DNA of 9,543 nt from a virus (IMGVR_UViG_2695420728_000007:1-9543); one strand, 5' to 3'. Shown: positions 1,658 to 2,299, counted from the stretch's first letter. The notes: generated by a model not told the origin, from the sequence alone. Made by a program: numbers and translations.

Positions 1658-1756
1658 ATCACCACCAACGGATTGCCCAGACCAGAACAGCAATGGCCAC
1701 AATACGAATGGCAAATGCCATTGCCCGAATAAGTTCAGCACTCATCTTTTTAAAGT

Positions 1757-1879
1757 TCACGATTTCAGCGCAATGACCAGTTTTGCCAGCCCATACAGCA
1801 TCGGAGACACAGCAATACCAACAGCCACCCACTTAATAGCAAAAGCCAGCGCTCTGCTGATGTCATCAGTCACTGTCAC
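1757..1879 (-). CDS. Possible second small hydrophobic ORF (40 aa) or frameshifted continuation of the 43-aa ORF
   Basis: GTG at 1879-1877 overlaps the preceding TGA as GTGA. It is the 3' part of track ORF 1757..2029 and reads VTVTDDISRALAFAIKWVAVGIAVSPMLYGLAKLVIALKS. The 5' part of that track ORF looks non-coding (Cys-rich, TTG start). Confidence 0.2.
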   Translation of the reverse strand: MTVTDDISRALAFAIKWVAVGIAVSPMLYGLAKLVIALKS

Positions 1880-2007
1880 CCCAGCAGCCCCGACGAAGAC
1901 AACATCACCCAGGCGAAGGACAGAAAAAGAGCAACCAGCATTAGTGAAAATGAAATACCGACAATCACACACAGGACCTTTGCCGGCGTTATGAGTTTGT
2001 CTGACAT
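1876..2007 (-). CDS. Hypothetical small hydrophobic protein (43 aa) in the endolysin-Rz gap
   Basis: ATG at 2007 with AAGGGG 5 nt upstream; hand translation gives MSDKLITPAKVLCVIVGISFSLMLVALFLSFAWVMLSSSGLLG, stop TGA at 1876-1878. Not in the supplied track (too short). One predicted TM segment. Confidence 0.3.
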   Translation of the reverse strand: MSDKLITPAKVLCVIVGISFSLMLVALFLSFAWVMLSSSGLLG

Positions 2008-2170
2008 AGCTACCCCTTAATTGCCACAATTAACTGGGATACTACCCATAAAAAAGGGATGCTCCAGACCAGCAAAAATTTCCAGTTTGGTAATTGACTA
2101 ATCATGAGTCGCAACTCCCTAATCAGTTTGCTAAAATCAATCAAGGCAGCCTCCCATAGCTTACTGCCAT

Positions 2171-2215
2171 AAAAACAAAACCCCGCTTGCTGCCAACAAA
2201 CGGGGTTTTTACTTT
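2171..2215. terminator. Bidirectional intrinsic terminator-like hairpin downstream of the endolysin gene
   Basis: Stem CCCCGCTTG (2181-2189) / CAAACGGGG (2197-2205) with one mismatch and a 7-nt loop, flanked by an A-run (2171-2180) and a T-run (2206-2210), so either strand gets a U-tract. Confidence 0.5.
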
Positions 2216-2299
2216 TATTCACTTACATTTTGCCAGTTCGCAGGATTTCGTGTTATCCATCCGCCTTGGCCAACGTCATTTATTAGCAAAATATTCTGC

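Follow-up and report, generated by a model that had tools for sequence, protein, structure and literature searches.

A stretch of viral DNA of 9,543 nucleotides (IMGVR_UViG_2695420728_000007:1-9543, hereafter the window) belongs to a lambdoid prophage and carries, between the endolysin gene (R) and the i-spanin gene (Rz) of its lysis cassette, four head-to-tail hydrophobic open reading frames (ORFs), P1 to P4, which we read as four separate microprotein genes. All genes in question are on the minus strand, and features are given here in the direction of transcription. P1, P2, and P3 are independent genes whose substitution patterns show purifying selection (strong in P3, moderate in P2, and synonymous-rich in P1), and P3 and P4 are, by alignment, paralogues in short form within a single narrow family of enterobacterial phages. 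The peptide genes are shuffled as modules among related phages and lie behind an intrinsic terminator. Our preferred reading of their function, which we hold tentatively, is that P1-P4 are late-expressed, single-span inner-membrane microproteins that may modulate lysis by the pinholin, the SAR (signal-arrest-release) endolysin, and the spanins. The feature itself is real, common, and ordinary in its distribution, but uncharacterized. Its ORFs are already known to databases as hypothetical proteins, as PHROG families, and from one ribosome profiling (RIBOseq) list. Literature searches found no functional study of the peptides and no account of the array, its shuffling, the P3/P4 family, or the terminator-first layout, and a survey of the lysis cassettes of Shiga toxin (Stx) phages does not mention these ORFs (PMC8136144).

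Four hydrophobic peptide genes between R and Rz

The R-Rz interval is 642 bp long (R ends at 2300 and Rz begins at 1657) and comprises, in order, a conserved box, a terminator hairpin, and P1-P4. An earlier reading made from the sequence alone (the sequence-only reading) had described a cassette split by about 640 bp encoding small hydrophobic peptides, and this description holds: the length agrees, each of P1-P4 has one 19-residue window with a Kyte-Doolittle mean of at least 1.9, and the cassette is interrupted relative to those in which R abuts Rz, such as that of K-12 Qin, where rrrQ overlaps rzpQ with no insert and no Ynf protein at the site (curated K-12 small proteins were checked). Of the peptide ORFs themselves, it had rightly recognized P2 and P3 but missed P1 and P4. 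All four peptides match PHROG families of unknown function, with P3 and P4 in the same families, and RefSeq, for an identical E. coli chromosome, lists hypothetical proteins at P2, P3, and P4.

The first of the four, P1 (2105-2010, minus strand, 31 aa; MISQLPNWKFLLVWSIPFLWVVSQLIVAIKG), is a single-span peptide with the ribosome-binding site (RBS) AGGGAG and a hydropathy of 2.19, matches phrog_6632 (E = 6e-5, or 1e-12 with its upstream extension), and was found in 11 phage records. Its two allele types have only the core WKFLLVW-IPFLWVV-QLI-AIKG in common, each preceded by its own short Met-initiated N-terminus, and we favor the 31-aa form for this reason; between the two types, 3 codons of this core are replaced, as opposed to 6 changes that are synonymous. 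Two longer forms were rejected given that the upstream extension is not kept in the divergent allele, namely a 44-aa form starting at TTG 2144 and a 70-aa GTG ORF (2222-2010), the latter also crossing the terminator. One phage record labels a 70-aa terminator-spanning ORF as 'TPR_REGION'.

P2 (2007-1876, minus strand, 43 aa, single-span; MSDKLITPAKVLCVIVGISFSLMLVALFLSFAWVMLSSSGLLG; phrog_4906, E = 5e-21) begins 2 nt after the P1 stop, and its RBS (AAGGGG, 5 nt before the ATG) is made by the last sense codons of P1 (AAG GGG), in keeping with its earlier description as a well-initiated 43-aa ORF. Residues K4, G17, and F20 are invariant, 247 of 256 loci have the stop at precisely codon 44, and the ratio of non-synonymous to synonymous change (pN/pS) across 27 alleles is 0.41 (0.31 in the N-terminal half), compared to 0.84-1.31 in the other frames. 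A protein search returned 101 clusters, all from E. coli, and P2 is full-length in 276 deposited phage genomes, mostly Stx-converting and usually without annotation of the gene. In those records, P2 occurs without P3, as an autonomous ORF of 43-48 aa that immediately precedes Rz; in the Stx phages it stands 7-12 nt upstream of Rz, next to two Rz variants that are 57% identical. Ribosome profiling of O157:H7 Sakai reported a P2 homologue, XECs191, as a translated novel gene with one predicted membrane helix (12.6 reads per kilobase per million in the lysogeny broth translatome, coverage 0.55; PMC5597208). We located XECs191 as ECs_1966 in prophage Sp10, between an antirepressor gene and Rz. Among the natural P2 alleles, eight loci are frameshifted in the C-terminal half (...ALRLDDVVFVGDAGVRGI), yet end 132 nt after the start with the TGA overlapping the Rz ATG, and seven have a disrupted N-terminal half (L113-L115, L100, and L163 are examples among these alleles).

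P3 (1879-1757, minus strand, 40 aa; VTVTDDISRALAFAIKWVAVGIAVSPMLYGLAKLVIALKS) starts with a GTG on the P2 stop and matches phrog_1115/3246/4493 (E = 4e-25). We place its start at GTG 1879 because the part homologous to the rest of its family starts no earlier than VTDD, and an ATG occupies this position in allele P0207; the 51-aa form in RefSeq, with an annotated CTG start at 1912, and a 90-aa mechanical ORF (2029-1757) were both rejected in favor of this start. Between E. coli and Salmonella, P3 has 23 synonymous and 14 non-synonymous changes. The resulting pN/pS is 0.21, whereas the two remaining sense frames give 1.24 and 4.11; in-frame values span 0.12-0.21 across comparisons. An antisense ORF opposite P3 (1773-1994, plus strand) was rejected as an in-register shadow frame with no conserved start, its pN/pS in a four-gene comparison being 0.34 against 0.21 for the sense frame. 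This antisense frame is open in both E. coli and Salmonella and reaches 122 aa in one locus (L003), where it likewise behaves as a shadow ORF. In E. coli loci with the reversed gene order (type B, below) and in Salmonella, P3 is an autonomous gene of 48-60 aa. P4 (1745-1659, minus strand, 28 aa; phrog_4493, E = 4e-6) makes the least convincing gene of the four: its RBS is weak (AAAAAG) and its allele variation is too low for a selection test. Its TGA lies one base before the Rz ATG.

The interval is not unusual among E. coli, as 587 of 5426 complete genomes hold at least 80% of it. A survey of 167 related loci found at least seven arrangements between R and Rz. That of the window, R-P1-P2-P3-P4-Rz (type A), occurs in 75 loci, with alleles too similar to reveal selection, and the reversed order R-P3(60 aa)-P2-Rz (type B, O157:H7) occurs in 76. 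R-ant-P2-Rz is found in Stx phages such as Min27, BP-4795, and P13374, and the remainder (R-P1-P2-Rz, R-P3-Rz, R-P3-P4-Rz, and R-P3-P2-P3-P4-Rz) are rare. These arrangements bear on the junction of P2 and P3, where the P2 TGA (1878-1876) overlaps the GTG (1879-1877) that opens P3, as GTGA. The sequence-only reading had seen this overlap and offered two explanations, either two coupled membrane peptides or a single membrane-protein gene of ~85 aa (2007-1757) interrupted near 1877-1890 by a frameshift or a read error. The two frames do abut and both are hydrophobic, as a single gene would have it; however, when the relatives were aligned, an intact fused ORF was present in none of about 260 loci and in neither of two protein searches, P2 and P3 were found apart and in reversed order (O157:H7), and the P2 C-terminus, ...GL(L/V)G followed by TGA (GGGGTGA), was the same in every context. 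Given this constancy, the GGGGCTGCTGGGG run is no read error but the conserved natural C-terminus of P2 (...GLLG*). We consider a single broken gene refuted by these comparisons and extremely improbable, and the two coupled peptides, which occur separately elsewhere, were the right alternative. The further suggestion of a decayed gene is right in small part, as P3 and P4 are N-terminally shortened compared to their family.

The family to which P3 and P4 belong, here termed MKNG/AFAI(K/R), was defined in this analysis by alignment. An exhaustive profile search of 1.84 billion representatives recovered only 24 clusters, nearly all of 20-90 aa; a contig scan with the P3 alignment profile confirmed no locus. 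In canonical members, the sequence runs (M-KYKRILLRLT)MKNGLE-x-DAP-x-T-x-E...AFAI(K/R)..., after which come a hydrophobic span and either ...ALKS or ...IRWW. P3 is of the ALKS type (AFAIKW...ALKS) and P4 of the RWW-ending branch (AFAIRIV...AIRWW), each having the AFAI(K/R) element, the span, and the ending. Neither contains the N-terminal MKNGLE-x-DAP-x-T motif; both begin after it, at the same homologous position. One explanation would be that the P3 and P4 of the window are 5′-truncated remnants of the recombination that inserted a P1-P2 module, leaving only P1 and P2 active. Alongside the missing motif, the GTG start of P3, the weak RBS of P4, and the uninformative type A alleles would all suit such an origin. 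Short forms starting at this same position nevertheless occur in independent lineages (P0207, with its ATG; P0213, on 56 contigs; P0221; and P0236), which argues that N-terminal shortening need not mean decay; about 80 loci keep these frames intact, and the stop/start overlaps look designed for coupling. We therefore regard the remnant explanation as quite unlikely. P4 itself resembles P0236 (...AFAIRLISIAIFIWAIRWW), and a MSAELIRA-type N-terminus is seen again in P0213 and P0221.

A terminator-first layout

The peptide genes are directly adjoined on their upstream side by an intrinsic terminator (2209-2167, minus strand), identified by scan, fold, and stem conservation, which consists of a G+C-rich hairpin of 13-15 bp (2209-2177) and a T-run. 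The folding energy of the 140 nt past the R stop is -43.9 kcal/mol (z = -4.1), and across 13 sequence variants the stem is paired in 97.6% of cells, with compensatory changes at 2 pairs and a variable loop. The hairpin had been called bidirectional, of which the minus-strand half is borne out; on the plus strand, where TTTTTACTTTTATT follows the hairpin, termination is plausible only, and the terminator scan reported the minus strand alone. Ahead of the terminator, in the R 3′ region, lies the non-coding box GGCGGATAACACGAAATCC (2261-2243, minus strand), which is present in all arrangement types and in Salmonella, and the first ~95 nt of the interval are common to every related arrangement. 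The box is kept from E. coli to Salmonella as GGCGGATAACAC(G/A)AAATCC (about 2858-2876 in the Salmonella locus L172), while its flanks diverge, and it is predicted to fold into a small hairpin. Within 1658-2299, an Rfam scan of the complete window (E <= 1) gave no match.

The same layout recurs in other settings. The distance from the hairpin to the ATG of the 60-aa gene in type B is only 37 nt. The Salmonella locus has the same order of conserved box, homologous hairpin, P3, and Rz, with P3 10 nt upstream of Rz and with another holin (90 aa) and another lysozyme (161 aa). It also carries a further hydrophobic ORF of 32 aa (MAAMICFVAAFMLACDGRSGWGWFLLVGLIVM; 2714-2812 in L172), which overlaps the lysozyme end and is unrelated to P1-P4. 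A 'terminator, then gene' layout is likewise seen at the tail-fiber end of Salmonella prophages. Stx phages with an antirepressor gene (P22_AR_N domain) in the R-Rz gap (L005, L167-L170) have a different hairpin past the R 3′ region, GGCACCGTAATGATGCC then TTTGTCATTT, so a terminator-like element is maintained at this point although the cargo differs.

A sigma-70 consensus scan revealed no minus-strand promoter-like site in 1100-3700, so expression of the peptides should need Q-dependent readthrough of the terminator. RNA polymerase modified by Q would pass the terminator and transcribe P1-P4 together with Rz/Rz1 late and only then, whereas in a lysogen the terminator would keep both peptides and spanins silent. 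Spanin expression would then depend on readthrough, a point that the sequence-only reading had raised. The overlapping or abutting stops and starts would couple translation along P1-P4, and the chain may also feed Rz. Such late, insulated expression would suit a membrane-active and possibly toxic product.

Small hydrophobic peptides of this kind also recall Hok, TisB, and Ibs, raising the prospect of a type I toxin-antitoxin-like module in which P1 and/or P2 would be toxic and an antisense RNA would run from 2001-2030 (plus strand) to the reversed hairpin. The plus strand does hold one promoter-like site there (CTGACA-18-CACAAT with a TG), and TTTTTACTTTTATT could end such a transcript. One match is nevertheless fewer than the 2.6 expected by chance, the divergent P1 allele has not retained the -10 element, and nothing equivalent exists in type B. 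With no toxin promoter found, no match to HOK_GEF or another toxin family in Pfam, and no Rfam match in the region, we consider a module of this type very unlikely.

A possible role in lysis

In the reading we favor, the array would be accessory cargo in a phage 21-type cassette and not an essential lysis component. Once in the inner membrane, the peptides would act as modulators of lysis at its membrane step; this is the least secure part of the proposal. They may disturb the proton-motive force; alternatively, they may pack against the transmembrane helices of the pinholin or SAR endolysin via small-xxx-small motifs (G17xxxS21 in P2 and GIAVS in P3), a kind of motif that mediates helix packing. 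Pinholin/SAR-endolysin systems are triggered by membrane depolarization, and either action would tune the time at which the pinholin fires and the SAR endolysin is released. A role in lysis is suggested by the fixed site of the genes in the cassette and by the way in which P2 or P3 adjoins Rz across diverged cassettes. The sequence-only reading had proposed a lysis-timing or exclusion factor, which stands as a hypothesis.

Several findings weigh against this role. No homology to a holin, antiholin, releasin, toxin, or defense protein links the peptides to lysis: P1-P4 have no match in Pfam (E <= 1) or NCBIfam, neither Pfam nor PHROG yields a holin family for them, no dual-start motif is visible, and PADLOC returned 0 families for the five peptides tested. 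The genes are dispensable, being absent from K-12 Qin, and lambda and phage 21 also lack them. Natural P2 alleles are frameshifted or disrupted in the 15 loci noted above, and the RIBOseq signal of XECs191 is weak and comes from uninduced cultures. The P3 and P4 of the window, which lack the N-terminal family motif, could be inactive remnants. Members of the P3 family are also found at a distance from lysis genes, at the tail-fiber end of Salmonella prophages. The promoter scan, finally, was a simple sigma-70 consensus search, which could miss a real promoter.

Some of these findings would be expected if the peptides were late accessory cargo unrelated to lysis and acted on another membrane target, for instance in superinfection exclusion, in blocking a host defense or transporter, or in modulating a host membrane protein, with the R-Rz junction merely a permissive insertion site. 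The junction is variable and also houses the antirepressor gene, the peptide genes are dispensable and shuffled, and the ribosome profiling signal was obtained without induction. Generic cargo fits as well as a lysis role for the P3-family genes at the tail-fiber ends, which lie among hok/gef, hicAB, and a colicin-like gene. On the other hand, P2 is almost always the gene directly before Rz, and PADLOC gave no match. No promoter was found and several contexts leave no room for one, so that nothing supports expression in the lysogen, which is the hallmark of conversion genes. We consider cargo unrelated to lysis possible, though on the unlikely side.

At these Salmonella prophage ends (L260-L265), the P3-family genes lie past the tail-fiber and SASA/DUF6645 genes and behind one or two terminators, sometimes with a divergent tandem paralogue (MKDGIKIDAPATQET...), and beside DUF1353; a hok/gef, hicAB, or colicin-like gene is nearby. 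A SASA/DUF6645 esterase gene is thus upstream of the peptide genes at these ends and upstream of the lysis cassette in the window. The DUF1353 neighbor was tried as a link to lysis and rejected, as PHROGs places it with tail assembly chaperones and it has no relative in the PDB.

Returning to the lysis reading, in a broader form of it the P2 and MKNG/AFAI families would be a new class of microproteins that regulate lysis by pinholin and SAR endolysin, silenced by a terminator in lysogens and released by Q. By fixing when the membrane depolarizes, they would determine the timing and amount of phage and Shiga toxin release; this wider proposal we hold to be doubtful. The matter is of interest because lysis is the exit route of both phage and Shiga toxin in Stx-converting and related lambdoid prophages. 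The accepted parts of the cassette are the holin, the endolysin, and the spanins, and many cassettes also carry these conserved, selected, and mostly unannotated microprotein genes. Should the peptides tune lysis timing, they would constitute a missing regulatory layer; should they act otherwise, they would still form an unrecognized family of late-expressed phage membrane microproteins. In either case, annotation would benefit from attention, with starts and whole genes called inconsistently (e.g., the CTG start of P3 and the absence of P2 from most Stx phage records).

The surrounding late region and known systems

The late region of the window (minus strand, except where noted) opens with the late-gene antiterminator Q (8203-7382; PF03589 Antiterm, E = 8e-55), the regulator on which the readthrough proposed above would depend. 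Between Q and an STnc100-type RNA (6096-6285; Rfam STnc100, 132 bits, E = 1e-29) lie two tRNA genes (6985-7058 and 7166-7238). There are no stx genes between the tRNAs and the esterase gene, and with its tRNAs the region resembles an Stx-phage-type late region without the toxin. The STnc100-like RNA is upstream of the SASA/DUF6645 esterase gene (5489-3618), and an opposite-strand ORF of 111 aa (5735-6070, plus strand) lies between the two. From the esterase stop to the holin start there is a gap (3500-3617) that contains a strong terminator hairpin (3535-3507). The PasA/PasC (AgvB-type) prophage small RNAs have been reported to lie between the esterase and holin genes, i.e., outside the R-Rz gap.

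The lysis genes proper begin with a holin of class II that belongs to the phage 21 S (pinholin) family (3467-3252, 71 aa; PF04971, E = 9e-33; 'class II holin family protein' in RefSeq), followed by a YdfR/DUF1327 gene (3247-2897; PF07041, E = 6e-43, also annotated in RefSeq) and the endolysin R, a lysozyme (2833-2300, 177 aa; PF00959, E = 1e-23; phrog_7 endolysin). The N-terminus of the endolysin, as read from the sequence, has a SAR-like segment, YGLSAAVLALIAAGA (MNTKIKYGLSAAVLALIAAGAPAP), that is weakly hydrophobic and Gly/Ala-rich. The spanins are of the two-component type, with the o-spanin Rz1 (1437-1252; PF06085, E = 2e-21) nested in the gene of the i-spanin Rz (1657-1163, 164 aa; PF03245, E = 4e-51). 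For a 74-aa ORF (942-1166) overlapping the Rz stop, the match to the phrog_2571 profile (291 positions) is confined to residues 100-172, and the ORF may be part of some longer gene.

This cassette is akin to that of phage 21 in its PF04971 holin, its PF00959 lysozyme with an apparently SAR-like N-terminus, its PF03245 Rz, and its nested PF06085 Rz1, all on one strand downstream of the Q antiterminator. In phage 21 and lambda, however, R is followed directly by Rz, whereas the window has YdfR/DUF1327 between S and R, and a terminator and four microprotein genes between R and Rz. Non-essential membrane proteins within lysis cassettes have precedents in antiholins and accessory lysis-timing proteins such as the S21-71 antiholin and LysA of phage P2. 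LysA lies between the endolysin K and LysB/LysC, the same position between endolysin and spanin equivalents, and is likened to the peptides by position and not by sequence; it has several membrane spans, whereas the peptides are single-span. In phage Mu, SAR endolysin release is controlled by the releasin gp25, a small membrane protein with a single span whose gene lies near those of a SAR endolysin and spanins; gp25 comprises 99 aa with a 73-residue cytoplasmic domain (DUF2730; PMC9239132). The peptides described here, in contrast, are of 28-60 aa with almost no soluble domain and no Pfam (DUF2730) match at E <= 1.

Two further systems invite comparison. Type I toxins (Hok/Gef, TisB, Ibs, and ShoB) are hydrophobic single-span peptides of 20-50 aa that can depolarize the inner membrane. 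P1-P4 differ in lacking a toxin promoter, a supported antisense RNA, and a HOK_GEF match, and in belonging to a co-directional operon in which they would be linked in translation to their neighbors. Lambdoid morons (bor and lom), which possess a promoter and terminator of their own, are expressed in the lysogen, with the lambda bor locus, adjacent to the lysis genes, being a permissive site for cargo. The peptide genes are like morons as optional cargo at variable late-region sites beside lysis genes, but their terminator is upstream and no coding-strand promoter was found, so they do not have the moron structure. A direct homologue is XECs191 (ECs_1966), which has the core sequence of P2 in common but is a 48-49-aa form following an antirepressor gene, whereas the P2 of the window is 43 aa long and follows P1.

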